64,000 bases of DNA from Synechococcales cyanobacterium CRU_2_2. GTDB taxonomy: Bacteria; Cyanobacteriota; Cyanobacteriia; PCC-9006; JAAUQQ01. The notes under the pieces are model-generated. The model was not told where the DNA came from, ran no database searches, and saw only the letters and a program-made list of their open reading frames with translations. The stretch lies in assembly GCA_012034805.1 (NCBI GenBank), contig JAAUOP010000007.1, positions 1,003 through 65,002 of the forward strand. Direction: 5' to 3'. The position numbers and the translations under genes were made by a program. Below are positions 8,690 through 28,800 of the stretch, piece after piece (position 1 is the stretch's first letter; the number at the start of each line of letters is the position of its first letter).

Positions 8690-8929
8690 TGAAAATATTA
8701 ATATTTAGGAATTTAGAATTGACTGCCCCCGCTCCGCATTTATGCGGCCATATCTCGGCAGTTGTGGTCGATTGATGACATTAACTTTTCCCGAGCAAGC
8801 CTATGATGAACTGTGTCAAACGAAGGAAAATATGGGTTCGATGATTGAATTCACCGATTCCGACAATCGGAGGACTTTGGGCTAGAGTTGAAGAACAGAA
8901 CAGGCCGTGAAAGATAGCCTGGGGGAATT

Positions 8930-9508
8930 ATGGCGGTGCACAATTTGGGGTTGAATGCGTTGGCGCGGCGATCGCTCGCCAGTTTGATCGTGGGTGCGGC
9001 TCTTTTGGGCGTGCCTCAGGCGATCGCCGTGCAATTCTCCGACGGCACCCGCCACTTCGCCGCTGTTCCTCGCCTCGTCAAAGTCAGCACCACCCAAAAT
9101 CAAGCCCATACCTGGGGCGGACGCTACTACATCACGGTCAGCGTGCCAGAGGATGCCAGCGAACCACTCGGCAAACTCGAGATTCGCCAAGATGAAGGCA
9201 GCGATCGCCTCGGGCCGTTTGAGTTTGACCGTACCCTGGCCTTTGTCGAGGGCGATCGCCAACGTTCTGTGCAGGTCGAGTGGGTGGAGCTCGATCGCGA
9301 TCGCCAAACCATCGCGGTGGCGTTCAATCCCCCGATTCCCCCTGGCAAAACCCTCACCCTGGGCCTCGTACCCGTGCGCACCCCCGATGCTGGTATCTAT
9401 TTGTGGGGCATTACTGCTTTTCCGGCAGGGGAGAAGGTGGCGTCCCAGTTTCTGGGCTACGGGCGGCTACATTTCTATGACGATCGCGATCGGTCGTTTT
9501 GGAGATGA
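8930..9508 (+). CDS. Exported cyanobacterial protein, DUF2808-like
   Basis: Signal peptide, then FSDGTRHFAAVPRLVKVSTTQNQAHTWGGRYYITVSVPEDASEPLGKLEIRQ, which matches my recollection of DUF2808. Confidence 0.5.
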   Translation: MAVHNLGLNALARRSLASLIVGAALLGVPQAIAVQFSDGTRHFAAVPRLVKVSTTQNQAHTWGGRYYITVSVPEDASEPLGKLEIRQDEGSDRLGPFEFDRTLAFVEGDRQRSVQVEWVELDRDRQTIAVAFNPPIPPGKTLTLGLVPVRTPDAGIYLWGITAFPAGEKVASQFLGYGRLHFYDDRDRSFWR

Positions 9509-9540
9509 CCAATTTCGGTGCTGGGCAACTTCAGCCTTGA

Positions 9541-10242
9541 CTATTTGGGCATCGGCAGCCCAAACGTCCCATGAAAATCTTCCTTGACCTTGAGGGTGAG
9601 ACGACGAGAAATTTGGCGAACCACTTGGCGGAGGAGGCGATCGCCTGTACTCTGAATCATCTGCTGGGGGAGTATTTGGATAAATCGCGGAAACTGTAGC
9701 GTTACGCCCAAATCCAGCACCCACTCCACATGGGTCATCGCCGCAACTTCCGCCTCCGTGGTCTCCACCGCACGCAGCTCTAGCACCGCCTGAAAATCGA
9801 CGCTGTAGCCCACCGACTCATACCCCGGCACGTCGATAGTGCGAATGCGATAGACCCGGTCTTCCTGGGGCAAGAGGTCTAGACCGATTTGGGGGGCGAT
9901 CGCATACCCTAGCGCCCCAAAGCTCCCAAGAGAAAGTGCATAACCCGTATTCCCGAGGGGCTTCGCTTCCATCGGAGCCGCACAGCGACGGAACCAATCC
10001 TGGTGGTTGTCGAGATAGTCCGCCACCTGCTGGGTATCCGCACACATCTCCATACAGTCTGTGAACCGACTGCGGAATTCGGTCAATGGTTTACCCTCGT
10101 CGTTACCGACTATTTGTTCCACCCCCAATCTGGCACTGGCTGCCCCCGTAGGATCCACAAAACCATTATCAACGTAATGGGATGGGTTGCGCGAGGTTGG
10201 CTGGTTTTCGAGCGGAAATTGAGAGGTGGAAGAAATTGACAT
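9541..10242 (-). CDS. DUF1997-like protein
   Basis: ...ADYLDNHQDWFRRCAAPMEAKPLG..YALSLGSFGALGYAIAPQIGLDL...RIRTIDVPG... The likely start is the internal ATG at 10242 (MSISSTSQ). Confidence 0.5.
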   Translation of the reverse strand: MSISSTSQFPLENQPTSRNPSHYVDNGFVDPTGAASARLGVEQIVGNDEGKPLTEFRSRFTDCMEMCADTQQVADYLDNHQDWFRRCAAPMEAKPLGNTGYALSLGSFGALGYAIAPQIGLDLLPQEDRVYRIRTIDVPGYESVGYSVDFQAVLELRAVETTEAEVAAMTHVEWVLDLGVTLQFPRFIQILPQQMIQSTGDRLLRQVVRQISRRLTLKVKEDFHGTFGLPMPK

Positions 10243-10578
10243 AAAACTGATGTCTGAAGTCGAACAGTGTGATTGGGACAGTGTGATTAGAACGCTTACA
10301 TCTAGAAAGACACAGTCGCTGACAGAAAGATTCCGCAACAACCACCGAAGCAAAGGGACACCTAACCTCCAGGGAAGGGACTTGGGAACGAGCCGCAGCC
10401 TTGCGACCAGAGCTGCAACTGAATCTATGAGCTGACTTCACCCTACAATGTAACGAATTTTGTAGCTTTAGCACCATAGCCGTTTTACGCAAGCCAGGGT
10501 GTCAGGCATGAACCTTACGGCTCAAGGAGACGTGAATCCACTGGCATCTGAGCCTCCAATTTGGGCGATCGCACTCTG

Positions 10579-10598
10579 CTTGAACTTTGCAGTTCAAG
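10579..10598. promoter_or_regulatory. Perfect palindrome cttgaact-ttgc-agttcaag, followed by a 20-bp tandem repeat (10604-10643)
   Basis: Read directly. Lies in the DUF1997/MarR divergent intergenic region. The palindrome is a possible MarR-type operator. Confidence 0.25.
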
Positions 10599-10832
10599 TT
10601 TTCGGGTCAGCGGCTTTGGCTTTGGGTCAGCGGCTTTGGGTCGCGGGTGAGCCATCTCGGTGAGCTCAAGATCCAGATCCACTCGCTAAACCCAAGGAGG
10701 GGGTCAAAGTCCCCATCCAATGGAGGCCTGAGCCCCCTCATCCCGCTGCCCCTGGTGGAAACTCACGACCAGTCTGATAAATTACTGGCGTTGCCCCTAG
10801 GGATAACAATCATCATTTCGGGGTTCAGTGCT

Positions 10833-11339
10833 ATGACTCGTGCGGTAGGCATCTATGACTCAATCGATCGGATCTTGGATGGCTGGGCTCAGTCTCACCC
10901 TCAACTCGACTTTTCTGCCAAAGATGTAACCCTGCGACTCCGGCGGCTCACGGCCTTGATGGAAGCGCGGTCAGCTCCAACTCTAGAACAACTCGGCTTA
11001 AAGCCCGAAATTTTTACGCTCATGGCAGAACTGCACCGCAGAGGTCACCCTTACGACAGCACACCTCGGTACCTGATGTCTTACCTGGAGATGAGTTCCG
11101 GCGGCATGAGCAATCTGCTGGATCGGGCGGAGACGAGCGACTTTATTCGGCGCGTTCCCGATCCTCTGGACGGACGCAGCGTGGTGGTTCAACTCACCCC
11201 TTTGGGGCAAGAGCGCATCGAGGCCGCACTCAAGGCTGAGACTCAGCAGGAGCAGGCTTTGTTGACCCCTTTGAGCCGTCGAGAGCGGGAAACCCTGGCC
11301 CAGCTTTTGCGTAAGCTGATTTGTGCGGCCGTGGCTTAG
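10833..11339 (+). CDS. MarR-family transcriptional regulator
   Basis: Winged-helix region ...YLEMSSGGMSNLLDRAETSDFIRRVPDPLDGRSVVVQLTPLGQE. ATG at 10833 gives a typical 168-aa MarR. Confidence 0.75.
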   Translation: MTRAVGIYDSIDRILDGWAQSHPQLDFSAKDVTLRLRRLTALMEARSAPTLEQLGLKPEIFTLMAELHRRGHPYDSTPRYLMSYLEMSSGGMSNLLDRAETSDFIRRVPDPLDGRSVVVQLTPLGQERIEAALKAETQQEQALLTPLSRRERETLAQLLRKLICAAVA

Positions 11340-11419
11340 AGGTTTAGCATCCGTATCGGCACTCATATCACTAAACTAGGTGGAGTGCTCACCTGAGCTT
11401 TGCCCTCCACGGTTGTCCC

Positions 11420-12703
11420 ATGCGTCCTCGGCAAGATCTCGCTGAACTCTTCTCAACTTTCCTGCAGCTCGAAACCGGCACTAGCGGTCGCTGGAGCCAT
11501 GAACCGACGCTCAGACGGAGCATACTTCGAGCATTGCAGCTCCAACCGAACCAGGCGGCCAAAGCGACCAACGCGTTCTGGGTTAGTTATTGGTTGGAGC
11601 AGCACCGGCAACAGCATTCATTCCCCTCGTCCGCGTCGGTCTCATCTGCGCCGACTTCATCTGGACATCGCCTCTCCCAACACCATTTACTCGCCTATAC
11701 CCAGGAAGCCTGCTATTGGGCCAGCTACCGGTTTCACAAAACAATGGCCCAGTTTGCCGCGATTTCTGATCAGACCTTGGCTGACTATTTTCAGATCGCC
11801 CAGGCCCAATTTTCCAAGGTGCTAGCTGGGTTTTCACCAGACCGGGGAGCCACCCTTGAGACCTACGCGGAGCTGGCCTTTACCCATCGTTTGAAAGATG
11901 CGGTACGACAACAGAAAACCTTGGATATTTGTAGCAACTGGTCACTGTTACGTCGAACCAGCCGAAAACAGCTTCAAGAAACCTTAGAATACCAATCTCT
12001 CTCTCCCGCTCTCCAACAGCCCTATCTGTGGGCTTGGCTCTGCTTTCGAGAGGGCTGGGTTGGGGCGTCTGCACCTGGGGCGAGGCGACGGCTGGCTCCT
12101 GCGACTGAGGATTGGCAGGCGATCGCCCAAGCCTACAACCAATCAAAACCGCCGGAGCAACCTCTGGCCACCCCCGAGCAACTCGAGCAGCGGTTAACCC
12201 AGATGGCCGCTTGGCTGCGGGCTTATCTGCATCCATCGGTTCAGTCCCTCAATCAACTGCAGTATGGTGAGGAAGGGGAAGAGCGCTTAGCAGGTCTCTC
12301 AGATCCCACCGCTTGGGCACAAAGCGAGGGTTTTGTGGGTAGCCCTTCGTTGTTGACGAATTTGATTGCCGAAGAAGAGATAAACGAACGACAACGGCAG
12401 CGATCGCAGCTCGACCAAGTTCTCGCCCAAGCGATTCAGACCCTCAAGCCCGAGTGGCAGACCGTTCTCGACTTGTACTATCGTCAGGGTCTGATTCAAT
12501 CCCAAATTGCCAAGCACATCGGGTGTTCTCAGCCATCCGTGGCGCGGTATCTGTTGCGAGCCAGGGAAGCGTTGTTGAACGCCTTGGTCACCTGGAGCCA
12601 GCAAACCTTGAATATTGTCTCGAGTCCCGATCGTATAGCCCAGCAGGGTGACGCAATGGAAGAATGGTTGATGGGGCACTATGGTTCTCAATCTAGAGAG
12701 TGA
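11420..12703 (+). CDS. Extended sigma-70-family RNA polymerase sigma factor (cyanobacterial type associated with DUF1822)
   Basis: C-terminal region 4 HTH (VLDLYYRQGLIQSQIAKHIGCSQPSVARYLLRAREAL). N-terminus MRPRQDLAELFSTFLQLE and a long insertion between the region 2-like and region 4 parts. 427 aa. Confidence 0.7.
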   Translation: MRPRQDLAELFSTFLQLETGTSGRWSHEPTLRRSILRALQLQPNQAAKATNAFWVSYWLEQHRQQHSFPSSASVSSAPTSSGHRLSQHHLLAYTQEACYWASYRFHKTMAQFAAISDQTLADYFQIAQAQFSKVLAGFSPDRGATLETYAELAFTHRLKDAVRQQKTLDICSNWSLLRRTSRKQLQETLEYQSLSPALQQPYLWAWLCFREGWVGASAPGARRRLAPATEDWQAIAQAYNQSKPPEQPLATPEQLEQRLTQMAAWLRAYLHPSVQSLNQLQYGEEGEERLAGLSDPTAWAQSEGFVGSPSLLTNLIAEEEINERQRQRSQLDQVLAQAIQTLKPEWQTVLDLYYRQGLIQSQIAKHIGCSQPSVARYLLRAREALLNALVTWSQQTLNIVSSPDRIAQQGDAMEEWLMGHYGSQSRE

Positions 12704-12712
12704 GGAGGTTTT

Positions 12713-14155
12713 ATGGCGGTCTTGAGCGAGGTGGTAGCCGATGCGCGACATTGGTGGATTCCCTTGGATCCGGAGGTCGTTCAGCGCAGCTGGCAGCACA
12801 GCCAGCGGCACAGCCAACCGGGGCGATGTTGGGATGACTACCTGGGCCGATTGTGTTTGGTTGGTCTGGCGGAGGGTTTGGCAGAATTGGAGGCGTTGGG
12901 GCTGAGCAAAATTCAACCTGGATTATCGCCAAGCCTGTCGGTTTGGACTGCCGTTTGGGAGGGAGTTGGGGGCTGCGTGCTGCGGGTTATGCCGGAGATG
13001 GTGATAGCAGAAGGTGTCACGGCTGAGGGTGTCACGGCGGAACGGGTCACGGGAAATGACAGAACGACAGACGAAATCCGGTTGGTAGTAATTCCAGGGG
13101 ATGAGATTGACGCGGAAGCCTTAGTGGTGCCCCAGGAATGGGTGGATGTGCCGGATTGGCGGGGTCACTATTATTTGGCGGTTCAGCTTTGTGGCGAGGC
13201 CGAGGCCGCCGAGGTAGGGGACGAAGAATGTGAGCCCTACGGTTTGAGAGTCTGGGGCTATGCAAGTCATCGTCAATTAAAGGAAAGGGGCGATTATGAC
13301 CCCCAGACGCGCAATTATGTTCTATCACGGCCAGACCTACAGGAGGATCTGACAGCCTTGAGTGTGACGCTGCGCCATTGCGACACCCAGGGAACTCAAG
13401 CCGTAGTGGAACCCTTAGCTGTGGTGTCAGCGGTGCAACGGGAAAATTTGCTCGAGCGCCTAGGGGATCCGGCCTTGGCATTTCCTCGGTTAGCGGTTCC
13501 ATTTGCGCTCTGGGGTGCTTTGATTCAGGATGAGGACTGGCGTAAACGGTTGTATCAGCGACGTTGTCAGGGCTGGGTGGGCCAAGTGGATGCTCAGGTG
13601 ACGCGGTTGAGTCAGTGGCTGGAGGGACAGTTTGAGCAGGGGTGGCGATCGCTCACGGATTTGCTCGGCCCAGGGACAGCATTTGCACCTCAGTTGCGCA
13701 GTGGGATGGTTGATTCGAGGGAGATTGGCCAGAGCGATCTCACCTCGGGCTTCCCGCTAAAACGCGCGAAGTCCATTATCCTGGGCGGAATTTCTGGTGA
13801 AATGACTGACGAAAGCGCCGATGATGTATCCAGAGTGATATTACTCGTTTCAGTTGTTCCCACATCAATTCAATCAGACTCAGTCTTGCAGGTGCAGGTT
13901 CAACTTCATCCTCTTTGCGGACAACAATTGCCCCCAAGGGTGCGACTCGTCTTACACGATCCAGAGCAGGTCATGGATCTACAAGCGATTGAGAGCGGGG
14001 CGGCGGATACCTATCTACAGCTCACGCCCCTCACCGGCAGGGTAGGGGAAACCTTCCAAGTGCGAATTGAGTACCCAGTCTCTAGTCAAACTCACCCCAG
14101 CCAGGAGCAAGATGCCGCAGCCCCTTGGACGGTCACTGAATTATTCCGGCTGTAA
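12713..14155 (+). CDS. DUF1822-like protein
   Basis: RBS gaggagg 6 nt upstream. The segment LVVIPGDEIDAEALVVPQEWVDVPDWRGHYYLAVQL...LRVWGYASHRQLK matches my recollection of the DUF1822 core. The stop overlaps the next ATG (TAATG). Confidence 0.6.
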   Translation: MAVLSEVVADARHWWIPLDPEVVQRSWQHSQRHSQPGRCWDDYLGRLCLVGLAEGLAELEALGLSKIQPGLSPSLSVWTAVWEGVGGCVLRVMPEMVIAEGVTAEGVTAERVTGNDRTTDEIRLVVIPGDEIDAEALVVPQEWVDVPDWRGHYYLAVQLCGEAEAAEVGDEECEPYGLRVWGYASHRQLKERGDYDPQTRNYVLSRPDLQEDLTALSVTLRHCDTQGTQAVVEPLAVVSAVQRENLLERLGDPALAFPRLAVPFALWGALIQDEDWRKRLYQRRCQGWVGQVDAQVTRLSQWLEGQFEQGWRSLTDLLGPGTAFAPQLRSGMVDSREIGQSDLTSGFPLKRAKSIILGGISGEMTDESADDVSRVILLVSVVPTSIQSDSVLQVQVQLHPLCGQQLPPRVRLVLHDPEQVMDLQAIESGAADTYLQLTPLTGRVGETFQVRIEYPVSSQTHPSQEQDAAAPWTVTELFRL

Positions 14156-16615
14156 TGGACAGGCCTATGATGGACAGCGCTTGGACGGCTCCGATACAAA
14201 CCGAAAAACAGGTCATTCTTTCCCTCGCTGGGGGGACGTTAGAGCAAGGCTTTCCAGCAGTGACGATGCAACTGAGTTCGGATCAGCCCCCGACCCAACG
14301 GCTGAAGGTAGTGGGTTCGCTCTCTCCAGCCCCCCATTTGCATCAGCTGTACCACGACTGGCGAGCTCACTATCTAGCCCTCCAGGATCGGCTCAGAATT
14401 CAGCTCGTGGCTGATCACAGCCCCAATCAGGTCTCGCGAGAACGGTTCGAACACCTGTCTGAGCGATTCGGACAGGCGTTAAATCAATGGTTGAGTCTGC
14501 CAGGATTTCATCGGATTGATCAGCAACTGCGGCTATATCTCAATCCCTCAGATCCCATTCGTCTCATTTTGGAAACCGATTGTCCACACACGCGACGGTT
14601 GCCTTGGCATTTATGGCTGTTTTTCCACGACTATCCCCAGGCTGAATTTGCCCTCGGCAGTCTCAACTACCGCCCCACTCAGGCCCCAGGTCTAGCTGCT
14701 CGCTCCAGTTCTATTCGCTCCGGTTCTATTCGCTCCGGTTCCGTGCGAGTCTTGGCAATTTTAGGAACTTCCGTCGGCATTGACGTAGAACGCGATCGCG
14801 CCCTCCTCACCCAACTCCCCCAGACGAGCTCCAATTACTGGTAGAGCCCTCGCGATCGCAACTCCACGCTGCCCTCTGGTCGGATCTAGGGTGGGATATT
14901 CTCTTCTTTGCGGGCCATAGCCAGAGCCAAGCCGGAGATAACAGCGGCCAGATTGCGATTAATGATCGCGAATCGTTGACGATTGAACAGTTGGAATATG
15001 CGCTGGGAGCGGCGATCGTCCGAGGTCTACAACTGGCCATTTTCAACTCCTGTGACGGTCTTGGCCTAGCCCGAGGCTTGGCAAATTTGAATCTTCCCCA
15101 GCTGGTGGTCATGCGAGAGCCGGTACCCGATCGCGTGGCACAAACCTTTCTGACCCATTTTTTGCAAGCGTTCTCCTCCGGGCGCTCCTTCTATGGTGCT
15201 GTGCGAGAAGCGAGGGAGAAACTTCAGGTCCTGGAAGATCAATTTCTGTGCGCGTCTTGGCTACCGGTGATTTATCAGAATCCAGCGGCGATTCCACCCA
15301 GTTGGCAAAGCTTAGCCAGTACTTCGGAGCTAGCCCTAAGCACGAATTCCCGACCTCGGACGATCGCCGCCTTGAAGTTGCACTCGGCTTTAATGCGGGG
15401 AGCGATCGCCGCGATCGTCATCCTAGGCTTACGTTACCTGGGCCTGTTACAGCCCTTTGAACTGTTAGCTTACGATCTCTTGCTCCGCCAACGCCCCGCT
15501 GAAACCACGGATCCGCGCATTTTAGTCGTGGAGGTAACTGAAGAGGACACCAACCGCTATGGCTATCCCCTAGAAGACAAACTTTTGGCTCAGTTGCTTC
15601 AAAAACTTTATCAATCCCAGCCCCGTGCGGTCGGGTTGGATATGCATCGGGCCCAGCCTCGAGGAGAAGGACGCGCCGAATTTTTAGAACAGTTTCAACA
15701 GCATCCGAGTCTGAGTACGGTTTGCTGGGGAAATCAGAATGATCAGAACTTTGCCACCCCGCCTGAATTCGATGCCGTTCAGCAAACCGAACAATTGGCC
15801 TTCAGCGATCTGTTGCCAGACCTCGCACCGTTTGCTTGGCTTTCCTCAGGAACTGTGCGTCGCCAGCTGCTTTCCGTCGATCCAAACCTAGGAGAACTCT
15901 CGGCCTGTACTGCGGTTCAGGGGCTCAGTCTAAGGTTGGCTCAAGTGTTTCTGAGCGCTGAACAGCGAACGATTCGTGTGGACGGGCAAAGACAACTGGG
16001 GTTTTGGATCAAAACGACCTTCTACCAAAGCCTGCCCCGACGAGTTGGAGCCTACCAACACCTAGATGGGCTGAGCAGTCAGATCTTGATCAACTACCGC
16101 TCAGCGCAACCCGGACAACGCGTGAACCTCGAGCAGGTATTGTTGGAGCAACTGCCACCGGAGATGGTGCGCGATCGCATTGTCCTCATCGGCACCACAG
16201 CCCCCGTGGGCGGAGATATCAAGCAAACACCTTTGGGTGAAATGCCAGGCGTTTGGGTTCATGCCCATCAGCTCAGTCAGTTGCTCAGTGCCGTTCTCGA
16301 CCAGCGCCCGCTCCTGGGGACGTTGCCCCAGTGGAAGGATTTCCAGTGGGGAGATGGGCTATGGGTAATGGTTTGGACATTCCTCGGGAGTGGCCTGGGC
16401 TGGGGTTTGAGCTGTGGCCCGACACAGCATTTACGACGCGTCCAGTCGTTGATTTGGGGAACTGGGCTGGGGGGGTCGTGGTGTTGTATGGCATGAGTTT
16501 GGGGGCGATCGCCAGGGCCTTTGGTTGCCCCTGGTTCCCTCTGTTCTCGGTTGGGGGGTGGGTTATGCCGCTAGCCTTCGTCCTAGTTTTCGTTCCGGTT
16601 TTCGTTCCGGTTTAG
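14155..16615 (+). pseudogene. CHAT-like (caspase-fold) domain fused to a membrane CHASE2 sensor domain; reading frame broken twice at homopolymers
   Basis: Candidate His/Cys dyad ILFFAGHS and LAIFNSCDG. TM helix AIAAIVILGL, then the CHASE2 signature LQPFELLAYDLLLRQRP...ILVVEVTEED...AVGLDMH, then C-terminal TM helices. Frame 1 to 3 at C5 (14817-14821). Frame 3 to 2 at G7 (16469-16475). Confidence 0.75.
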
Positions 16616-16648
16616 TCACTCCAGAAATTCACCATCCATAGGTTTGCC

Positions 16649-17409
16649 ATGAATACGACAATTCTCCCTCTCGTCAAGCACACCCCTCTGGTCAGAATTC
16701 TGAAGGGTTTAGCACTATGGACTCTAGCCTGTGGTTTTGGGACTCAGTTGATGCAACCAGCCGTTGCTCAATCAACTGTACAGCCAGCTGAGCGAAGAAC
16801 TCATCAGATTAGCCAGTCTAGACCCGCTCGATCGCGACCCTCTACCCCCAAACCACCCCGCAGTCAGCGACCCAACCAAACCCGAGCCGGGGGCTCACTG
16901 AGTGAATCCTGTTCGCGTTCTCAGCAAGTTCTGTCTGCCCTGGTTCCGACTCAAAACCCAGTCACCACTCGCAAATCCCAACCCACCGTTTGGGTTTATG
17001 TACCCTACACACCCGCTGAGATTCAACAGGCAGAGTTTGTGATCAATGTTGGGATTGCGGAAAAGAACGGTTGTATCGACAAGCGATCGCCCTTCCTCCA
17101 ACCCCTGGATTTGTCGGCCTGACCTTGCCCGCTGAAGTGAGCCTAAAACCCGGTATTCCCTATCGCTGGTACTTGACGCTGCAATGCGTCGGGCCTAAAG
17201 CTACGGCCCAGTTCAGTGTGGATGCAGGCATTCAGGTGGTTGGATCGGAACAGGGGGAGGGGACGATCGCTTGGTATGACGAGGTGGAGGCGATCGCCCA
17301 GCAGTTGCAGTTGCAGCCGGAGAATCGAGAGGTGCGCGATCGGTGGCGTCAGCGCTTGGCAGAACTCGGGCTGGCAGAACTTGCCAATCAGCCGTTACAG
17401 AAGCTTTAG
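16649..17409 (+). pseudogene. DUF928-like exported protein, one frameshift near 17061-17073
   Basis: Signal peptide. QPTVWVYVPYTPAEIQQAEFVINV... continues in frame 1 as LYRQAIALPPTPGFVGLTLPAEVSLKPGIPYRWYLTLQC, the pattern I associate with DUF928. Confidence 0.6.
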
Positions 17410-17450: not shown

Positions 17451-17495
17451 CTATTACAACCCATTCTATTACAACCCATTCTATTACAACCAATT
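17451..17495. repeat. 15-bp tandem repeat x3 (ctattacaacc[c/a]att) spanning the stop codon of the TPR-CHAT gene
   Basis: Read directly. The third copy contains the last codons plus the stop (NWL*) of the minus-strand gene that ends at 17484. Confidence 0.9.
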
Positions 17496-20171
17496 GCCCA
17501 CCAGCACATAGGTTGCCCACACATGGGGCGTTGTATAGCCCTCCTCCAGCAACGATAACTGCGCCGATCGCAGGGCCTCCGCCCGACTGATTGCTGGATT
17601 TTGCAACGCCTCATAAAACCGTAGCATCAAAGCCGTATTCGGCACATCCTGAGCCTCCCATAGCGTCGAAACCACACTCTGAGCTCCTGCCTGCACTGCC
17701 AACCCCGCCATGCCCAAAACAGCTCGGTTATCTCCTTGAGCCGTAGAACAGGCACTCAAAACTAATAGCTCCACCGGACTCGGCGTACCTGTTCTGGCAT
17801 CGCGCCCCCGCAGCAAAGGGCCTAGTTCTTGCCCTTTGAGCAACCCTTCGTAGGCCACCACAAAGGTTTCTTCTGGATCTGAGCTAAAAACACCGTGGGT
17901 TTTGAGATGAATCGCTGAAAACGATTGGCTAGAGAGCGACTGGGTTAAATTGGCTTTGGTGAACAACTCATTGACCAAGGGCTGGGGTGTGGCAAAGAGA
18001 TTGCGAATGCCTTCGAGTTCTGGTGCGAGGTTGGCGATCGCCGGAAAACTGCGCCCTTCTAGCTCCTGGGGCCGACCCACACCACCCAAAAATACGGAGA
18101 GATTGCGCGATCGCCGTTTGGGATCAAACAATTGCAGCCGAGGCGACAAAGCCACCGCATAGCGGCTAATGAGATAATCCTCCCCGTCGTAGAGCGCGGC
18201 CATCGGAATATTGCGCAAATCTCCATCCAAGACAAACACTAAGGTTTCAACCGACTGGTCTGTGAGGGCAGACTCAAAGGGTTTGATCAACCAGTCATGA
18301 ACCGTGGTGAGGCCTGCGATCGCGTCCGGCGTCCGTCCGGGTGTGGCTAAGTCGTATCGAAGTTGTTGCAGTTGTACCTGCATATCTTTGCGTCCTAGAC
18401 GCACTTCAGTATATTGCAACGGCTGCTGGCCAGGGGGCTCTAGGATAATGACGAGGCGATCGTCCAGAATGAGCGGGTAAAGCTTGGCCGCTTTCGGATC
18501 AACGGCCACGGCCCCGAGAGCCACCGTTTGCGCCAGCTTACAACCGAGGAAATTTTCGAGTTCTGCCAGTTGCAAGGCATCAACCTGTTGAATGGCCTGT
18601 TTTAGGACAGTTTGACTGGGATTGCCGTCCTTGGCGATCGATTCGTCCAACAGCAGCGCAACTAACTCTCGGTAAACGGGCTCTACATCGTCACGGAATG
18701 AAAACTGTAATTCTGGATTACTGGAGAGTAAATCACCGCGAATAGCCGCCAAACTCGTGACCGCATCGCGATAGAGGGCGATCGCCCCTGGCAAATCCTG
18801 CTGCTGGCGCAACAGTCGTCCCAGTTGCCACTCCCAACGATAACGCAAACTTGAAAGTTGTAAGGGATCCAAGGTCAGAAGCGCCTGTTCTGTCCAATAT
18901 TGGGCCTGGGCCCATGCGCCTTGCTGCTCTAACCAGGCTCCCCGCTGACCCAAGGCATGGGCGATCGCGGCAGGATCCGCAAGGGCCTTGGCCTGTCGTA
19001 GGGCAGATTGTATCAAGGGCTCTGGATTTTGTTTGAGCTGGATCAGGCTTTCAGCCAGGTTCAGCTGGGCTTGGACAGTGGCGCGGCTGGCTGGCTGGCT
19101 GGCGAGGTAGAGCGGTAGTTGAGTCTGGAACTGGGAGGCGATCGCGATCGCCTCTGGGGCGTCCATCTCGACCAAAAGGGCCAAACGATTTAATCGACTT
19201 TGCCATTGCAACGGATGGTCTTGGGACAGGGTTTCGGATTGCCGATAAAACTGCAATGCGCTCTGTTCAGCAGCTTTAGCCTCTGCCTGTTTCCCCAAAG
19301 CTTGCCATCGGGTGCGCAAGACCTGGGCACCATTGCCCAGCTCTAGGTATGTTTTGGCTTGTTGATCGATCGCCTCTGGCGGAATCAGGCCGAGGCTTTC
19401 CTGCAGAATCTCTTGCGATCGCTGGGGTTTCCCGATCTGTCGCAAGACAGTGCCGAACAACTGCAGACCCGTGGCCCTTACGTTGGCACTCCAGGGAACT
19501 CCCTTTTGCGATGCTTGGAGTTGCTGATAGCTTTCCTCCAACTGTTCCTCGGCTTGGCCATTGAAGCCCAATGCCATCAGGGCTTGGGCATGATTAAGGC
19601 GCGTTAGCAGCTGACCCTCTGAATCGCCCGCCTCCCCATAAAAAGCCTGGGCAGACTGCCAGGCTTGCTGGGCCTGCTCTATTTTTCCCTGTGACCAATA
19701 CAATCGCCCCTGGACATTGAGAATTCGGGCTTGAATGGATGGCTTGCTGAGGGCAAGAGACGCGTTTGCAGAATCAGTTGTGACTAGGGTTTTGGCTTGT
19801 TTGAGATGAACCTCAGATTGATTCCATTGCCCGAGCTGCTGTTCGGCCAGGGCCAGATAGCTCAGGAGTAGGGCTTGGTGTTGCGGGTGAAGTTTTTGCT
19901 GTTCGAGGGCTGTTTGCCAAAGGGCGATCGCCGCTTGGAAATTTCCCTGTCCGTAGCGTTGAAGACCTTGCTCCCATACTTGTGTTGGGAATCGCTCACT
20001 GGGCGATCGTTCACTGGGCGATCGTTCACTGGGCGATCGTTCACTGGGTAACGGCTCACTCACTGGCTGGGCCCATGCAGGCAATCCGCTGAAGCCGTCA
20101 GCAATGCAAAGTATCAGGCCTAGGGAGCCAGCAGTCATTCGAGTCAGGCGAGACCAGCAACAAACAGCCAT
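17484..20171 (-). CDS. Secreted TPR-repeat CHAT-domain (caspase-like) protein
   Basis: Signal peptide ...GLPAWAQP, (SERSP)x4, long TPR-like helical repeats, and a C-terminal CHAT domain with AIHLKTHG and LLVLSACSTAQGD. Confidence 0.85.
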   Translation of the reverse strand: MAVCCWSRLTRMTAGSLGLILCIADGFSGLPAWAQPVSEPLPSERSPSERSPSERSPSERFPTQVWEQGLQRYGQGNFQAAIALWQTALEQQKLHPQHQALLLSYLALAEQQLGQWNQSEVHLKQAKTLVTTDSANASLALSKPSIQARILNVQGRLYWSQGKIEQAQQAWQSAQAFYGEAGDSEGQLLTRLNHAQALMALGFNGQAEEQLEESYQQLQASQKGVPWSANVRATGLQLFGTVLRQIGKPQRSQEILQESLGLIPPEAIDQQAKTYLELGNGAQVLRTRWQALGKQAEAKAAEQSALQFYRQSETLSQDHPLQWQSRLNRLALLVEMDAPEAIAIASQFQTQLPLYLASQPASRATVQAQLNLAESLIQLKQNPEPLIQSALRQAKALADPAAIAHALGQRGAWLEQQGAWAQAQYWTEQALLTLDPLQLSSLRYRWEWQLGRLLRQQQDLPGAIALYRDAVTSLAAIRGDLLSSNPELQFSFRDDVEPVYRELVALLLDESIAKDGNPSQTVLKQAIQQVDALQLAELENFLGCKLAQTVALGAVAVDPKAAKLYPLILDDRLVIILEPPGQQPLQYTEVRLGRKDMQVQLQQLRYDLATPGRTPDAIAGLTTVHDWLIKPFESALTDQSVETLVFVLDGDLRNIPMAALYDGEDYLISRYAVALSPRLQLFDPKRRSRNLSVFLGGVGRPQELEGRSFPAIANLAPELEGIRNLFATPQPLVNELFTKANLTQSLSSQSFSAIHLKTHGVFSSDPEETFVVAYEGLLKGQELGPLLRGRDARTGTPSPVELLVLSACSTAQGDNRAVLGMAGLAVQAGAQSVVSTLWEAQDVPNTALMLRFYEALQNPAISRAEALRSAQLSLLEEGYTTPHVWATYVLVGNWL

Positions 20172-20267: not shown

Positions 20268-23200
20268 CTAATCCAACAGCTTGCAATGTTTGACCTGCGT
20301 GGAGGTTGTGGACTTGGCTGCAAGGATGATTTGTCCCTGGGCGTTGACGTCCCAGTGTGTGGCTTCAGCAAGCGGGTTGGGCACGGGAGTCCTGCTGGAG
20401 TGGACTTGTACTTGTGAAGCATTGAGCCCAGGGGGCAGTCGGAGATCGTCGAGGATGCTGGTACTGGTGAGGGGGGCGCTGGGGTTGGGAGGGAGGCCAC
20501 CCCGTCCGGTGACGAAAAACTCACCTTGGCTTGTTTGTCCTGTGGTGTTGGTCGTTTGGCAACCCTGGCTGGGTTGGGGAATATTGGTAGTGCTGGGGAG
20601 TTGAATCGCACCTTGGGCCGGATTGACATTCAGTCCTACTAAATTGAGGGTACCGTTGCTGCCAAACTCTGAGCTCGCGCTGATATCATTGGTCGCTTGT
20701 TGCCGTAATTGATTAAACGTTTTGCCCTTGTCGTTCAGCGTGAAATTGAGGATGCTGTTAGCATTGATGGTGACATTACCACCCCGACCCGTGAAAGCAT
20801 TGGCAATGATATCATTGTTCTCACCAGGCAAGGCCATAACAAAGGGAGCATTAATGGTGATATTGCCACCATCTCCACCGGACTGAGCCGTGCCTGCAGT
20901 GGCAGAAATCAGGCTACTTTGGTGCATGAGCAAGACATCTCTCACTCCCAAGTCAATGTAGCCACCCTGTCCAAAATCTGTGGAGGCTAGAAGTTGGCCC
21001 TCGCTATCCAAGGTTAATTGATTGGATTGAACGGAGAGGGTGCCAGCCGCTCCAGTTGCTGGTCGGGTTCCTATGAGAATACCGGTGATATTTTTGAGGG
21101 TGTTTGTAGCCAGATTAAGATCAGATGCACTCCCGGAGGCAACTGTTATCGTAGCGCGATCGCGCACCTGAACAATGGGCGATCGCACAATTAAATCGCC
21201 AGCCTTCCCTTGATCCGTCGTCTGAGCGTATAAACCACTGGCAAAGCCATCTGGATCGGTACCTTGCACTAGCAATTTTTCTGAGGCTACGACACTCAAC
21301 GTCCCGCCTTGACCTGTGGCAAATGTAGATGCTGAGATTGCGCCCCATTTTGGATTGTAAGTTGAGGTGTGGTGACGCTCAAATCGCCCGCATTACCGAT
21401 GCCAAATGTATCGGTTGAAAATGCTGTTGGCGTTCGGCCTGTGGGGGACAGAATCGATCCATCCAGACTAATCGACTCGGCGGCATTGACCGTCAAGTTA
21501 CCCCCCTGCCCCCTGCCAAATGCTGAAGTAGATAATATGCCTCCTGTCTGCAGAATGACCTGACCCGCGTTCACCGTTAAATCTCCAGCTTTACTGGGAC
21601 TAAAACTAGATGTTGCTAAACGGCTGGGAGACTTGCCATCGGGTGAGATGCCGCTAATATCGACGACACTTGCTGTAATGTTCACATTGCCGCCAAGCCC
21701 TGCTGGAGAGTCAATTGCATTAACATCGCCCGTTGTCGAGGCAATGATAGCGCCATCCCGCAATTGTAAGTGTCCCGCTTCGATCGCTACATTCCCGCCA
21801 TTCCCGGCACCAAGTGTATTAGCGACAATCTGAGACGATTGGCCTGTAGCCGATGTACCTGCCAGGGTTAGACTATCTGTAGCGACAATCGTAATGTCAC
21901 CGCCACGACCCGCCCCTACGGTACCGGCCACAATGTTGGTACCATTCTTGAGGCTGATGGTAGGAGCGCTGAGGCGAATCTCACCCGCCTGCCCTGCGCC
22001 TGCTGTACCACTATTGATCTCGCTATCCGTGAGGGCGATCGCTCCTGCTTGAATGGTGATCGCCCCGGCTTGCCCCGTTCCCGCTGTACCCGTAAGTAAA
22101 CGGCTGTTACTGGAAGCAAACGTGCCCTCATTCGTGATTTGGATATTGCCTCCATTCGCATTGCCAAAGGTCGCAGCATTCAGACTCGAGGTTGTAATAT
22201 TGCCGCTTGGGGCGAACAGTTGAATCGATCCAGCTCCTCCAGCCGCAGAGTCAGTCCGAACAAGTCCTTGGGTGGTGATATCACCGCTGGTACTGGTCAA
22301 GCGAATATCGCCCCCCTGACCCAAGCCAAAACTCCCTGAATCAATGGTGTCTTGCGTAGTAATATCTTGTGCTGCTGTGATAGCGATTGCTCCACCATTC
22401 CCGAACTGGGAGGTTGTCGTTAATTGACCCGTAATATTGACCCTGCCCGTTTCACTAGTCAAGCGAACCGTTCCTCCTGATGCCGATGAAAAGGAGATGG
22501 CTGTGAGAAATCCGGCCACAATATCGCTATATCCTGTGAGCGATATATTTCCGGGTATCAATCCATTTACATCAATGAGAGATGTCTCAATCCCCCCACT
22601 CCGACTGAGCAGTCGAATCGAACCACTAGGGGGGCCACCGAGGCCAAAGGACCGTATTGCAAAGATGCGAACATTATCCTTCGCCAAAACTGTGACATCC
22701 CCACCCCTGCCTGAGTCACCAAAAGGCCCCCGTGCTGCTATGGCACCGATATTAGCACCGCCGCGTGAATCAATCACCACAGTCCCTGCATTACCGGGAA
22801 AGCCATCTACATCAATCTCTCCCTCGACCTGAATCGAGCCACTGAGGGCAGAGTTTGGGGCGTACTGATTCGTTAGAAAAACGAGGCGATCGCTAATATC
22901 ACCGCCGTTGGCTGCTCCAATACTCCCGATCACAATGTCGGTGCTGGTTGGGGTACCTGTACTTGTGGGGGGTGGCGTAAAGCCAAGGGGAGATCCTGTC
23001 AAACTGGGGTTGCCAAAGGCAGTTGTGCCTGCCCGGATATCTAGGGTGGGACGAGCACTTCCATCGATCGCCAAGGTTGTTCCATCGGAGAGAGTCACGG
23101 TTTCCTGAAGCGACGTTGCTGGCGTACCCGCTCCTGTGAGAGTGACACGATCGGAAATCGTGACACTGCCCCCTGCCAGAATATGCAGAGATGTGCCCGT

Positions 23201-24175
23201 ATAGCTCGCAAAACTGACATCGCCGCTGGCACGAAGTACCGGGTCGTGGGGACTGACTAAACTTCCCAAAGCGCCATCCAGTTGCTCAATCCGCAGATTA
23301 CCGCCCGCTTGCCCATGGATATCTCCCAGAACTGGATTTGCGGATCGCCAGATCATATCCCTACCGGACCATAGGCCACTTTGGGGATGATTCAGGGCAG
23401 TCATTTCGACTTGGCGATCGCCTTGAATCAAAAGCTGTCCCTGTGCCGCGACCTGCAAGGGCTGCGTCAGGCTATCGCGGAGTTGCACAGTATCCGAAGC
23501 ATACAAAACTAAATCGCGTCCAGCTTGTATTTGTCCCCGCCCATCAATGCGGCTTGCCGCTAGGGTTAAGTTCTGGGGAGACTGAAGTTGCGCTCCCTCA
23601 ATTACCAAAGCTCCCGAGGCGTTCCCCCACTGCAATCCTGGTGTAACGTTCAAGGTTAGCAATGGTGGTGCTTGGGGATTTGTGGCACTGAATTTGCTGC
23701 CATTGCCAAACGTCAATGCATTAGCTGTGGTTGCCAGGAAGGAACCACCAATATCCAGCGCAGCATGGGAACCGAAGAGAATTCCATTGGGATTGAGCAG
23801 AAACAAACTGGCGCTGCCATTGGCCTTAATCAGCCCATCAATGCTGGAGGGATTACTACCTGTAACTCGAGTAAAAATCGCTTGAATTTGTGAGTCGTTA
23901 TCAAACCACGCTTGTCCCCCTGCAGGAATCGAGAATTCCTTAAAACTGTGGAACAGATTGGAACCTCGGCTCGTGCCGCCATTGATGGTGCAACCTCCTG
24001 TGCAGGGGGCGATCGCAGAGCCATTCACCTGTGTTGACAAGGTTCCATCTCCGGTGATTTGTGCCAGAGCTACAGCTGGTGAGGTGGCTAAAATAACACC
24101 ACCAAGTATCCCTAATCCGCCGCCTTTCGTAGACTGAAACCTTTGTTTTTGAAGCATATCCAGCATCCAGGTCAA
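20268..24175 (-). pseudogene. Giant TPS-domain (filamentous-haemagglutinin N-terminal domain) beta-helical exoprotein, copy 1; one frameshift near 21335-21345
   Basis: TPS motifs NLFHSFKEFSIPAGG and FLLNPNGILFG. G/T/S-rich beta-helix repeats. ORFs 21296..24175 and 20268..21299 join as ...LTIQNGAQ/ISASTFATGQGGTLSVVASEKL once one base is restored. Confidence 0.8.
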
Positions 24176-24341: not shown

Positions 24342-25235
24342 CTAGACAAAGATGAAGTCACGGGACATACTCACGTTTGTGGTGTCCTGGATAACAGCAA
24401 TCAAATCGCTATTGGAATAGACAAGGGTGTCTGTTGCAGCGCTACCGGCCAAGTTGCCGGTGCCGAGAGAATAGCTGGAGTTACCAGTAACCTCCACAAA
24501 GTCACTCGTCCAGTCCCAGTCTGCGATCGTGGCATAGCCAAAGCCCTGATAGGAAACACCCCAACCGCCACCCAGGATAAACGTGTCAGAGCCGGCACCA
24601 CCATAGAGTGTGTCGTATTCCACGCCTGACGTTGCATAACCATCAATGCGGTCATTGCCATCCCCACCGACCAAGGTGTCATCGCCACTCATGCCCAGCA
24701 GGGTATCGTTACCACCACCTCCGTACAAATAATCATGACCTGTTCCGCCATTGAGGTAATCATTGCCCTCGTAGCCACTCAGTGTGTCGCTCCCGTCACC
24801 GCCGTAAAGCGTGTCGTCTCCGTAGCCACCGAGTAGGTAATCATTGCCAGCTCCACCATCCAGGTAATCGGGTGTAAAGGCAAAGCTGCTGACCAATCCA
24901 CCATCAATGTGGTCATCGCCATTGCCACCATACAGACTGTCACTGCCATATCCGCCATAGAGTGTGTCATTACCTGAACCACCCTCTAGAATGTCGGCAC
25001 CATCTCCCCCATCCAAGTAGTCATTGCCTGACTCTCCTTGAAGCAGGTCATTACCGTAACCGCCGTAGATTGTGTCGTTGCCAGAGAAGCCTTTGAGCGT
25101 GTCGTCACCACTCAACCCATCAATGTAATCATTGCCGGAGCCTCCCCAGATAAAATCGTTGCCGGAGGTACCCGTTGCGACGAGGTCATCACTACCGAAG
25201 AAGTTGATATTGGAACCGGTTTGGTAGGTTGTCAT
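24342..25235 (-). CDS. RTX-type (haemolysin-type calcium-binding repeat) protein
   Basis: More than 15 consecutive nonapeptides of the form GGxGxDxLx (GGSGNDYIDGLSGDDTLKGFSGNDTIYGGYGNDLLQ...). 297 aa. Confidence 0.85.
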   Translation of the reverse strand: MTTYQTGSNINFFGSDDLVATGTSGNDFIWGGSGNDYIDGLSGDDTLKGFSGNDTIYGGYGNDLLQGESGNDYLDGGDGADILEGGSGNDTLYGGYGSDSLYGGNGDDHIDGGLVSSFAFTPDYLDGGAGNDYLLGGYGDDTLYGGDGSDTLSGYEGNDYLNGGTGHDYLYGGGGNDTLLGMSGDDTLVGGDGNDRIDGYATSGVEYDTLYGGAGSDTFILGGGWGVSYQGFGYATIADWDWTSDFVEVTGNSSYSLGTGNLAGSAATDTLVYSNSDLIAVIQDTTNVSMSRDFIFV

Positions 25236-25852: not shown

Positions 25853-28800
25853 TTAGTTCAAAAGTTTGCAACGATTTACACCTGGAGCGGTCATGGGTTG
25901 GGCAACAAGGGTAACTTGCCCCTGAGCGTTCATTTTCCAGTGTGTGGCCTCAGCGAGCACAGAGAATGCAGGCACAACAGAAGAATCAGCGACTGAAGCA
26001 TTGAGTCCAGGAGGAATCCGCAAGTCGTCGAGGATGGTAGCGCTGTTGAGGGGGTCGCTGGGGCTAGGGGGGAGCCGCCGCGTCCAGTGGTGAAAAATTC
26101 GGCTGGGGTGGTTGGGCCGTTGCTACGAGTCGTCTCGCAGCCTTGGCGGGGTTGGGGGGTATCGGTGGTGCTCGGGAGCTGTCCAACCCCTTGAGCCGGA
26201 TCCACATTGAGCCCAGTTAAATTGAGGACACCATCGCTACCGAACTCTGAGCTGGCACTGATGTCATTGCTAGGTTGATTTCGCAACTGATCAAAGGTTT
26301 TCCCCTTGTCGTTGACGGTGAAGTTGAGGATATCATTTGCATTAATCGTAATATTGCCACCGGTGCCGCTGAAGGCATTGGCAATGATGTCGTTATTCTC
26401 GCCAGGAAGGGAGATGACAAAGGGAGACGCGATCGCAATATTGCCGCCGTTGCCTGCGCCTTGGGCACGGCCAGCCGTAGCGCTGAGCAGACTGCCATTG
26501 CGCATGATGAGGGCTTGGTCGAGGGCCAAGGTAATGTCGCCACCATTGGCGGTATTGGAATCCGCAACGATTTCACCGCTGTCAAGGAGGAGGCGAGGGG
26601 GAGTGCCGAGGTCACCGATGATGATGTTGCCAGCAGCTCCGGTTGCGGTGGAACGAACGTAGATGCCACTGTTGGGGCTAATGGGCGTGATCGGAGGAAC
26701 ACGGCTACCAAATTGGGCGCGTCGAGCGGCATAAGCGGGGTCACGACCCACGATGCGAATGTTATCTGTGACGTTGATAGCGACTGTCCCCGCCGAGCCG
26801 CTGCTATCACTCGTGGAGAGGATTTGGCCACCGTTGAGGATTGACAATTCCCCAAGCTTGAGCGTGATATCGCCGCCAGCTTGGCTGTTGATAGTCCGAG
26901 AATCCATCACAGCTCCATTGCTGATTTGAAGCTGCGCGGCCGTGAGCAAGATGTCGCCCCCTGCACCTGTCCCTGTGCTGGTGCCGATGCCTGTCCCCGC
27001 CTCCGGTGTACCATTGCCCGCGAAGATTGTGCTAGAGCGCCCGTCTAGAGGGTTGATACCATCTAGCAGAATGTCACGACCGGCTACAATCCTTATATTC
27101 CCTGCATTCCCGTCGCCACGGGTATTGGACAAGAGTGCAGCGCCATCACGCACTTCTAGTCTACCGGCTGTGGTAATCTCGACATCGCCGCCTTTACCTT
27201 TACCGCCAAATCCGACACGGCTGGCAGCGGAGCTAACAGATTCGCCATTGGGGGTAGTGCCTTGAAACAGAACGCGATCGCGGGCGTTGATGGCGACATT
27301 TCCCGCATTCCCCTCGCTAAACGTCGTGGCTGTTAGTCGAGCCCCATCCCGCACCTCTAGACTACCGGTATTAATCTCAATGTTGCCACCTGCCCCCTTG
27401 GCTCTAAATTCCACACTGCTAGCGGCAGCGCTGACAAATCCACTGGCACTACTGCCCTGAAACAGAACGCGGCCAGTTTCTCCAGACTCCGCAGAATCGC
27501 GGGTGTTGATGACAATGTTCCCAGCATCCCCCTCACCGCGGGTATTGGCCAAGAGTTGGGCCCCATCGCGCATCTCCAGGCTGCCAGTATTAATTTCAAT
27601 ATTCCCGCCCTTGCCCTTAGCCCTCACCTCAACGGTGCTAAGAGCAGCTGAAGCACCCTGGAACAGAACGCGACCGGTTTTACCAGGCTGTGTAGAGTTG
27701 AGTGTGTTAATAAGCACGCTTCCCGCATCGCCTGTCCCAAACGTACTCGCACTTAACTGTCCTCCATCTCGCACCACGACCTGTTGTGCCCGCACCTCAA
27801 CATCACCACCCCGCCCCGTTGCCCCAGGTCCGATCTGATTTGCAACCTGACTAAGGTTGCCTGCCACTGTGACCATACTCGTGGCATCGAGTCGTACCGT
27901 TCCCGCTTGGCTACTCGGTGTCCCCAACCCTCGTAAAATTCCCCCGCTTAACACGCTTGCCCCACTGACCTCAATATCCCGCGCCGTAATTGAAATATCT
28001 CCACCACCTACCCCCGCAACAAAGACCCCGGCCCCATTCTCAAACCTGACATCTCCCCGCGCTAGCCCACCGACAAATCCCAGCCCTCCATCCGATGACA
28101 ACAGCACCGTTTCCGGCTCTGCGGTGGGCCCCGCCAAGCTCCGAAGCATCGCCCCAAGTTCAACCCGTCCACCCAACGCGACCAAACGCCCCCGATTAAC
28201 CACCACCTCACCGCCTAATAATCGCAAATTCTGGGTATCAGAAACGCGCAAAACGCCTTCATTGACCGAAATTCCTGGGATCGGACGCGACGTGATCCCA
28301 AAACCACTCGGATCCCCCACAATTCGCAATAAGGGTTGGGCGTTACCTGGGTTTATCGCATCAAAGCGACTCCCGTCAGGCCACACGATCGCATCCAGTG
28401 TCGTCGCCGTAAAATCCCCCCGAGTCGTGCCCCCAATATCAAGCTGGGCATTTGGCCCAAACACAATCCCAGCTGGATTAATCAAAAAGAAATTGACCGC
28501 TGGACTCTCTGTAAAAATCAGCCCATCAATCGATGAAACCGATCCACCCACCACTCGCGCCAAAATGTTACGAATTATTGCTGAGCTTTGAAATCCAACC
28601 TGCTCACCTGTTGCCAAATTAAATCGCCCAAGACTATGGAACAAATTTCTACCAACAGTCGTTCCATCCGCCTGCTGAATCAGATAGTTTGGGCCATTTC
28701 CAAGGATCCTTGCGGATCCTAAGCTGCTATCCAGCGTGATGGTTTGTGCCACCACAGAAGATTCCAAGAATACATGTGTCCCCAGCCATATCCCAAGAAT

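Follow-up and report, generated by a model that had tools for sequence, protein, structure and literature searches.

A predicted EACC2-CHAT-CHASE2 receptor protease encoded beside a sigma-like gene in Synechococcales cyanobacterium CRU_2_2: a further member of a widespread cyanobacterial family

Introduction

Can a periplasmic sensor be coupled directly to a protease inside the cell? The question is raised by a gene on a stretch of 64,000 nucleotides (nt; hereafter the window) from Synechococcales cyanobacterium CRU_2_2 (assembly GCA_012034805.1, contig JAAUOP010000007.1, positions 1,003 to 65,002 of the forward strand), which places a caspase-like CHAT domain ahead of a transmembrane (TM) helix and a CHASE2 sensor. 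A preliminary description of the window, made from the letters alone, read this arrangement as the conversion of a periplasmic signal into intracellular proteolysis. Our analysis indicates that the gene belongs to a widespread cyanobacterial family, the EACC2-caspase(CHAT)-CHASE2 proteins, of which it is an ordinary and probably functional example. It stands in the usual cassette of this family, and we lean slightly towards the reading that the receptor protease controls a co-encoded sigma factor through the adjacent DUF1822 protein. The locus adds one member to a very large known family, whose reading as a receptor protease has already been published as a computational hypothesis, and it is not a discovery from this window.

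Reconstruction of the gene

Three overlapping open reading frames (ORFs) in three frames of the forward strand (14155-14844, 14976-16496 and 16253-16615) make up one protein. As the reference for its repair we aligned to the window the DNA of L001, a 94%-identical metagenome contig that carries an intact protein of 827 amino acids (aa; P0001). The gene and its defects are the following.

14155..16641, forward strand: EACC2-CHAT-TM-CHASE2-3TM gene, 829 aa after three single-base repairs
14825..14826, forward strand: frameshift 1, one G absent (GAC-GAG, against GACGGAG in relatives)
15990..16027, forward strand: garbled patch, six surplus single bases, all of them homopolymer extensions, by comparison with L001/P0001
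16475, forward strand: frameshift 2, one base absent in a G7 run by comparison with L001, inside the stretch of TM helices 2-4
16512, forward strand: frameshift 3, CC against CCC in relatives, inside the same stretch

With the three bases inserted, the protein of 829 aa is 94% identical to P0001 over its whole length; the repairs at 14826, 16475 and 16512 bring back frame 1, and the gene ends with the stop codon TAG at 16639-16641 and not at 16615. The preliminary description had counted two frameshifts, an end at 16615 and 820 aa; its numbering and domain calls are correct except for the last ~45 residues, which stood in the wrong frame because the third frameshift had been missed. The garbled patch (40 nt, net +6) keeps the frame and scrambles about 17 residues inside CHASE2, reading RQLGFWIKTTFYQ in the window where the counterpart in P0001 is DNWVLDQTTLP.

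Domain architecture, fold and topology

The architecture was examined with Pfam and NCBIfam profiles, with an AlphaFold2 model built on 118 homologues (mean predicted local distance difference test score, pLDDT, 88.3) and with Foldseek. It comprises the following parts.

14203..14664, forward strand: N-terminal alpha+beta domain, putatively EACC2 (residues ~17-170; pLDDT mostly >90)
14743..15278, forward strand: predicted catalytic domain of the CHAT / caspase-hemoglobinase fold (residues 197-375; Pfam, AlphaFold2, Foldseek)
14916-14918, forward strand: codon of His255 (motif ILFFAGHS)
15051-15053, forward strand: codon of Cys300 (motif LAIFNSCDG)
15363..15437, forward strand: predicted TM helix 1 (residues 404-428; AlphaFold2 helix, hydropathy peak, K/R-rich N-terminal flank)
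15450..16313, forward strand: CHASE2 domain, predicted to be periplasmic (residues ~433-720; Pfam, AlphaFold2, mixed alpha/beta)
16347..16578, forward strand: predicted TM helices 2-4 (residues 732-809; helices 732-754, 760-787 and 794-809)

On the repaired protein, Pfam recognized CHAT (PF12770, clan CD) at residues 215-360 (E 1.1e-14, 55 bits against a cutoff of 24) and then CHASE2 (PF05226) at residues 419-745 (E 6.8e-55, 187 bits against a cutoff of 26), which bears out the proposed order of a CHAT domain upstream of TM-CHASE2. Residues 1-196 matched no Pfam or NCBIfam family, in agreement with the ~190-aa N-terminal region that had been left unassigned; this region nevertheless appears to correspond to the published EACC2 domain, to which it was matched through the published description and architectures. 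The sole NCBIfam match of the protein was HetF (NF045509), at 22 bits against an equivalog cutoff of 1200, and the protein is not a HetF orthologue. Membership of the metacaspases or orthocaspases was likewise rejected: there was no Pfam match to Peptidase_C14 at E<=0.01, and classical caspases and metacaspases came up only as distant folds (E 1e-3 to 3e-2).

The model shows a complete caspase-type fold with six strands in the main sheet, in which His255 follows strand 249-253 and Cys300 follows strand 294-298. Foldseek against the PDB gave as best matches separase (4e-9), Csx29, the TPR-CHAT protein of Craspase (9e-9), SAVED-CHAT (9e-8) and DdvA (8rot; 9e-7), whereas classical caspases, metacaspases, gingipain and legumain ranked much lower. 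A sequence search of the PDB with a profile of the 118-sequence alignment found no match at E<=1, and therefore only the fold comparison ties the receptor protease to solved CHAT structures; by the same profile search, CHASE2 appears to have no solved relative. In the model, CHASE2 is preceded by a single TM helix and followed by three. K/R residues are concentrated ahead of TM1, in the loop between TM2 and TM3 and in the C-terminal tail, a pattern that fits an N-terminus inside, CHASE2 outside and a C-terminus inside.

The His/Cys pair that the preliminary description had seen in the two motifs is present, and its conservation bears on whether the CHAT domain is a protease at all. A non-catalytic scaffold, or pseudo-protease, that recruits partners to a CHASE2 receptor would be suggested by the incomplete His-Cys site of DdvA, one of the structural matches, and by the partial Pfam match to CHAT, which covers profile positions 110-269 of 289. 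Yet H255 and C300, together with the flanking G254, N298, D301 and G302, are invariant in the 118 homologues, whose identities range from 41 to 94%, these residues remain invariant in a wider sample of 54 proteins, and the complete caspase fold is modelled at high confidence; we consider a scaffold extremely improbable. Alignment with hhalign to a TPR-CHAT alignment built from the fetched loci put His255 and Cys300 on the canonical THG and SAC motifs; the comparison worked only against this alignment and was uninformative against one TPR-CHAT sequence. The N-terminal domain, in which W69, W112, P150, W151 and W154 are invariant in the 118-sequence alignment, stayed unaligned to the N-terminal half of canonical CHAT in hhalign, which does not show EACC2 to be a pseudo-caspase-like subdomain. 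Taken with the HMM (hidden Markov model) match to CHAT, these sequence and model data confirm the architecture as real: a cytoplasmic caspase-fold CHAT domain with an invariant His/Cys dyad, a TM helix, a periplasmic CHASE2 domain and three further TM helices.

Size and composition of the family

A homologue search returned 6990 proteins at E<1e-5, of which the best 120 all combine CHAT and CHASE2, are nearly all about 800 aa long and in many cases bear the name 'CHASE2 domain-containing (sensor) protein'. In cyanobacterial genomes, each species being represented by one, a scan revealed at least 595 related loci, which span Nostocales, Oscillatoriales, Leptolyngbya-like forms, Chroococcales and Pleurocapsales. 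When residues 1-223 were searched against 1.84 billion representative proteins, 1316 clusters matched at E<=1e-3 and 844 at E<=1e-10, in proteins of 188-1767 aa; the N-terminal domain nearly always begins at residue 3-5, occasionally near 580 or 1036. CHAT was found in 53 of 54 proteins sampled from these matches and CHASE2 in 32, next to nSTAND1 (a STAND NTPase) in eight and WD40 repeats in seven. EACC2-CHAT is therefore the constant unit and the C-terminal sensor the variable part. The preliminary description had spoken of an inverted sensor architecture; the domain order is right, but the framing is misleading, since it is the N-terminal unit that stays constant and the sensor that varies.

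Two paralogues of 1092 aa (P0105 and P0117) have the order EACC2-CHAT-protein kinase-TM-CHASE2. In these, protease and kinase domains are both cytoplasmic on one CHASE2 receptor.

The cassette around the receptor gene

The genes around the receptor protease are listed here; those from the first TPS gene onwards are context genes.

10587-11339: MarR
11420..12703, forward strand: atypical sigma-70/ECF-like (extracytoplasmic function) factor, 427 aa (Pfam Sigma70_r4_2, E 4e-8; TIGR02937 sigma70-ECF, E 7e-23, residues 90-389)
12713..14155, forward strand: DUF1822 protein, 480 aa (Pfam DUF1822, E 1e-47)
16649..17409, forward strand: DUF928 gene, product probably exported (signal-like N-terminus; Pfam DUF928 in both halves)
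17484..20171, reverse strand: TPR-CHAT protein, 895 aa, convergent with the sigma operon, N-terminus resembling a signal peptide (Pfam CHAT, E 7e-50, and TPR families)
21296..24175, reverse strand: secreted protein with a TPS domain (filamentous-haemagglutinin type), a context gene
24342-25235: RTX protein
25930-28854, reverse strand: second TPS-domain gene

The window thus carries the full set of these genes, among them the cassette of sigma-like factor, DUF1822, receptor protease and DUF928. Neighbourhoods were counted in the best 80 of the at least 595 loci. A DUF1822 gene lies directly upstream on the same strand in 66 of 73 loci (90%) and a DUF928 gene directly downstream in 44 of 72 (61%), and within 8 kb a TPR-CHAT gene is found in 20 of 44 loci and a TPS gene in 15 of 44. 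In the window the stop codon of DUF1822 overlaps the start codon of the receptor gene (TAATG at 14153-14157), in agreement with the preliminary description, which had called the two genes translationally coupled. Its suggestion that either the DUF1822 or the sigma protein might be a substrate is reasonable as well, since the tight linkage to DUF1822 and to the sigma-like gene makes both plausible candidate partners or substrates.

The sigma-like protein has a ~90-aa N-terminal extension (MRPRQxxxELFSTFLQ...) whose Met start is kept in homologues of ~40% identity, and a ~160-aa linker between sigma2 and sigma4. The 427-aa protein could be a pro-sigma factor. Gene callers often truncate the gene to 319 aa. 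In the AlphaFold2 model of DUF1822 (pLDDT 83), a mixed alpha/beta part at the N-terminus is followed by a helical middle, and residues 349-479 form a beta-sandwich at the C-terminus.

The same neighbourhood bears on a different role for the protease, as the effector of a system for conflict, immunity or programmed cell death: once a signal from an invader or from damage was sensed, CHAT would cleave many proteins and kill or arrest the cell, the sigma factor being accessory. Kaur et al. (2021) placed EACC2-caspase proteins in apoptosis and immunity networks, some of them tied to TRADD-N adaptors (PMC8195603), the STAND NTPase and WD40 repeats of sister architectures are characteristic of systems of this kind, and the structurally closest characterized bacterial CHAT proteases, Csx29 and SAVED-CHAT, serve phage defence. 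PADLOC 2.0, however, gave no meaningful match for the receptor, sigma, DUF1822, DUF928 or TPR-CHAT proteins (none of the five matching a defence model), and a cytoplasmic invader would go unsensed by a CHASE2 domain that faces the periplasm. The near-constant pairing with DUF1822 and the sigma-like ORF in many loci point instead to a transcriptional output, and the flanking genes encode surface and secretion proteins (TPS, RTX, DUF928) rather than mobile-element or defence functions. We therefore hold a cell-death or defence role to be unlikely.

Several features of the cassette vary. Short in-frame tandem repeats of 15-nt and 12-nt units at 13016-13052, 14700-14741, 16577-16613 and 19991-20048 encode low-complexity linkers: AEGVT in DUF1822, SIRSG at the junction of EACC2 with CHAT, a further repeat at the C-terminal tail of the receptor protease and PSERS in TPR-CHAT; at both repeat sites tested, near 13006-13020 and 19996-20006, the window and L001 differ by indels. 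At the DUF1822/receptor junction, L001 (8111-8140, corresponding to window 14149-14155) carries an 8-nt unit, ATGGACTC, about three times (24 nt, in frame), against the single TAATG overlap of the window, so that the coupling spacing between the two genes varies. The context genes were confirmed by Pfam (TPS, E 9e-54 and 2e-33; HemolysinCabind, E 1.5e-51). A segment of ~3.2 kb (25864-29059), which contains the second TPS gene, is absent from L001, and the adhesin content of the locus therefore varies between close relatives.

Are the breaks in the reading frame real?

The reconstruction above presupposes that the breaks are artefacts. The alternative is a genuine pseudogene, in which the frameshifts are real and have put both the receptor protease and DUF928 out of action in the organism; the DUF928 gene is split by one absent A at 17061 (A4, against A5 in a relative), and the same break is found in Logan contig L088 of run SRR14117740. 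For a comparison of assemblies we used two further ones of the window organism: L086 (NCBI GCA_012032025.1, JAAURX010000022.1) and L087, a Logan contig of run SRR14117740. The DUF1822 protein of the window is also 100% identical to P0121 of the metagenome-assembled genome Synechococcales cyanobacterium RU_4_20.

L087 is identical to the window over 8713-15677, frameshift 1 included. Over 6960 bp, L086 and the window show no substitution but three single-base indels: L086 carries the G at 14826, with which the CHAT ORF reads through, and its sigma gene, intact in the window, is broken into pieces of 146 and 196 aa by an extra T at 11830 and an absent G at 12118. Indels that are private to single assemblies and come without substitutions are a signature of sequencing or assembly noise, not of divergence. 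Both other assemblies stop at 15677-15710, just ahead of the garbled patch, and the region is thus evidently hard to assemble. A housekeeping gene of the window is split too, as the ELFV_dehydrog_N and ELFV_dehydrog domains of the glutamate dehydrogenase gene (42591-43933, forward strand) lie in different frames, with the break near 43190-43241, which suggests that indel errors are spread across the assembly. When the window is compared with L001, the ratio of nonsynonymous to synonymous substitution rates (dN/dS) comes to 0.19 over the repaired receptor gene and to 0.10 over its first 400 codons, within or near the values of the neighbouring genes (0.11-0.21); the receptor gene has evolved under purifying selection, and its constraint is not relaxed.

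Some observations speak against an intact gene. Frameshift 1 and the DUF928 frameshift are common to the window and the Logan contigs of SRR14117740; the comparison of independent assemblies does not reach frameshifts 2 and 3, the garbled patch or the DUF928 break; and four of the window's indels are grouped within ~1.1 kb. One gene holds three frameshifts and the patch and the next gene a fourth frameshift, whereas the window has intact genes for sigma, DUF1822 and TPR-CHAT. The exact TPR-CHAT product, with two start codons tried, is not on record in an independent assembly, and the DUF928 fragment is on record only from the window's own run. On the other side, the window and the Logan contigs probably derive from the same reads and are hence not independent, and six single-base homopolymer insertions within 40 nt that total +6 are hard to explain by mutation. 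With the evidence from L086, glutamate dehydrogenase, dN/dS and the assembly breaks, we regard a pseudogene as quite unlikely; the frameshifts and the garbled patch are probably assembly errors, and the receptor protein is probably intact in the organism.

A comparable case was seen in L005 (7319-8561), part of a 6.1-Mb ENA genome that encodes P0002, a 71%-identical relative: its sigma gene is split between two frames, whereas the Logan assembly of a related run has it intact (401 aa), which makes this another assembly-specific frameshift in the sigma/DUF1822/receptor cassette.

Comparison with earlier descriptions and characterized systems

Classical CHASE2 receptors are adenylate cyclases, histidine kinases, GGDEF proteins and Ser/Thr kinases. 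They share with the window protein the same CHASE2 module flanked by TM helices, but their kinase or cyclase output is C-terminal, whereas the window protein has a predicted cysteine protease at the N-terminus; the kinase of P0105 and P0117 between CHAT and CHASE2 means that N-terminal outputs are not unique to it. For these classical receptors we refer to Zhulin et al. 2003, as cited in PMC8195603. To HetF, a cyanobacterial CHAT-domain protein of cell division and heterocysts, the window protein shows weak local similarity around the CHAT catalytic region only.

The architecture itself was described by Kaur, Iyer, Burroughs and Aravind (eLife 2021; PMC8195603), who named EACC2 and reported its combination with a caspase and variable C-termini, 'e.g., CHASE2', with an ECF sigma factor and DUF1822 as extra neighbour genes. 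They proposed a stimulus-induced activation of the autopeptidase that feeds into the sigma factor, and their supplementary file 17 contains a Fischerella entry with the same gene order as the window and a following TPR-caspase gene, as well as DUF1822-family proteins fused to an N-terminal HTH (helix-turn-helix) domain (PMC8195603). These fusions hint at a functional link of DUF1822 to DNA-binding or sigma-type domains. The domain order of their proteins is the same as that of the window protein, with no architectural difference found, and their description is purely computational. They called DUF1822 a TPR protein, whereas our model is mixed alpha/beta with a beta-sandwich, and they did not discuss DUF928, which we found downstream in the majority of the loci counted.

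Even earlier, Jiang et al. 2010 (PMC2853523) and Asplund-Samuelsson et al. 2012 (PMC3501461) had described a metacaspase-CHASE2 protein of Trichodesmium erythraeum, which likewise begins with a caspase homologue in the cytoplasm, continues through a single TM helix into CHASE2 and ends in three more TM helices, and which these authors read in the same way, as an external receptor coupled to an internal protease. Its protease was classed as a metacaspase (caspase p20 type), whereas the window protein matches Pfam CHAT, and the two papers mention neither an EACC2-like domain nor a sigma/DUF1822 neighbourhood. The receptor-protease model also appears as a drawing in a 2020 review (PMC7475262). 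The preliminary description had held that such an output was not experimentally described for CHASE2; our literature search agrees with this, but the novelty it implied does not stand, as the idea was proposed in 2010 and 2012 and drawn as a model in 2020, and the family itself was described computationally in 2021.

Two experimentally studied systems serve in part as precedents. In the type III-E CRISPR Craspase, Csx29 (TPR-CHAT) cleaves Csx30, an inhibitor of the ECF factor CASP-sigma (Strecker et al. 2022; PMC10028731). There, too, a CHAT protease stands beside an ECF-type sigma factor and a sigma-controlling partner, a signal-activated and site-specific cleavage leads to a transcriptional output, and Csx29 is among our best structural matches. 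Csx29, however, is a soluble protein with TPR repeats that RNA-bound Cas7-11 activates, it has no membrane or CHASE2 sensor, and DUF1822 has no detectable similarity to Csx30. In the DdvA/DdvS system of Myxococcus xanthus, the anti-sigma factor DdvA spans the membrane and carries a periplasmic TPR-CHAT domain, which was proposed to cleave itself, while the incomplete active site of DdvA suggested a scaffold role (Bernal-Bernal et al. 2024; PMC11506125). DdvA is thus also a membrane protein that combines a CHAT fold with the control of an ECF sigma factor, with proteolysis proposed as the signalling step; but its topology is reversed, CHAT being periplasmic and the cytoplasmic part a zinc-binding anti-sigma domain, its active site is incomplete, and it has no CHASE2, EACC2 or DUF1822. 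SpoIIGA, a protease of a different class, cuts pro-sigmaE after an external signal and is a functional analogue. By analogy, the logic that we propose for the family resembles Csx29/Csx30/CASP-sigma and SpoIIGA/pro-sigmaE.

Proposed mechanism

In the reading towards which we lean, control of the co-encoded sigma factor through DUF1822, a periplasmic signal would bind CHASE2, perhaps with the participation of the exported DUF928 protein. The signal would cross the TM helices and switch on the cytoplasmic CHAT protease, probably by dimerization and/or self-cleavage, and the protease would then cut a cytoplasmic partner, for which DUF1822 is the best candidate and the long sigma-like protein the second. 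Cleavage would change the activity of the sigma factor and hence transcription. The predicted topology, the invariant dyad and the caspase fold are compatible with the claim, made in the preliminary description, that a periplasmic signal is converted into intracellular proteolysis; the cleavage itself stays inferred.

A number of results tell against so specific a role. Using a sigma HMM, we recognized a sigma gene upstream of DUF1822 in only 31 of 67 loci; most other loci have at this position an ORF of ~230 aa with a conserved C-terminal segment, and Pfam scans of eight of these ORFs yielded weak matches to sigma region 2 or 4 in two. When the 200 nt ahead of the sigma gene were inspected by eye in 25 loci, no promoter motif was seen to be shared beyond close relatives. 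The DUF1822 model had no significant Foldseek match in the PDB and resembled no anti-sigma factor, Csx30, TRADD-N or TPR. The literature search found no experimental study of any EACC2-CHAT-CHASE2 protein, and no substrate, ligand or regulon is known for the family.

A more far-reaching version, which we find possible but doubtful, would make the four-gene cassette a self-contained trans-membrane proteolytic signalling pathway: a periplasmic cue would act via CHASE2, CHAT would cleave DUF1822 or the sigma factor, and the active sigma factor would control the neighbouring TPS adhesin genes. The cue might be DUF928 itself, or a DUF928 fragment made by the exported TPR-CHAT protease encoded nearby. 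If true, this would be the first CHASE2-to-protease pathway and a new mode of sigma-factor control, present in hundreds of cyanobacterial species.

Significance

Little is known of the ligands that CHASE2, a common bacterial sensor, recognizes or of how it signals, and CHAT proteases have recently come to be seen as precise signalling switches, in Craspase, in SAVED-CHAT and possibly in DdvA. The family considered here, which is found in hundreds of cyanobacterial species, joins the two, and its genes lie next to those for a sigma factor, DUF1822 and DUF928. The window taken alone adds one further, poorly assembled example, but the family is a worthwhile experimental target: if cleavage of DUF1822 or of the sigma factor were shown, this would assign a role to EACC2, DUF1822 and DUF928 and would establish a new route from signal to transcription in cyanobacteria.

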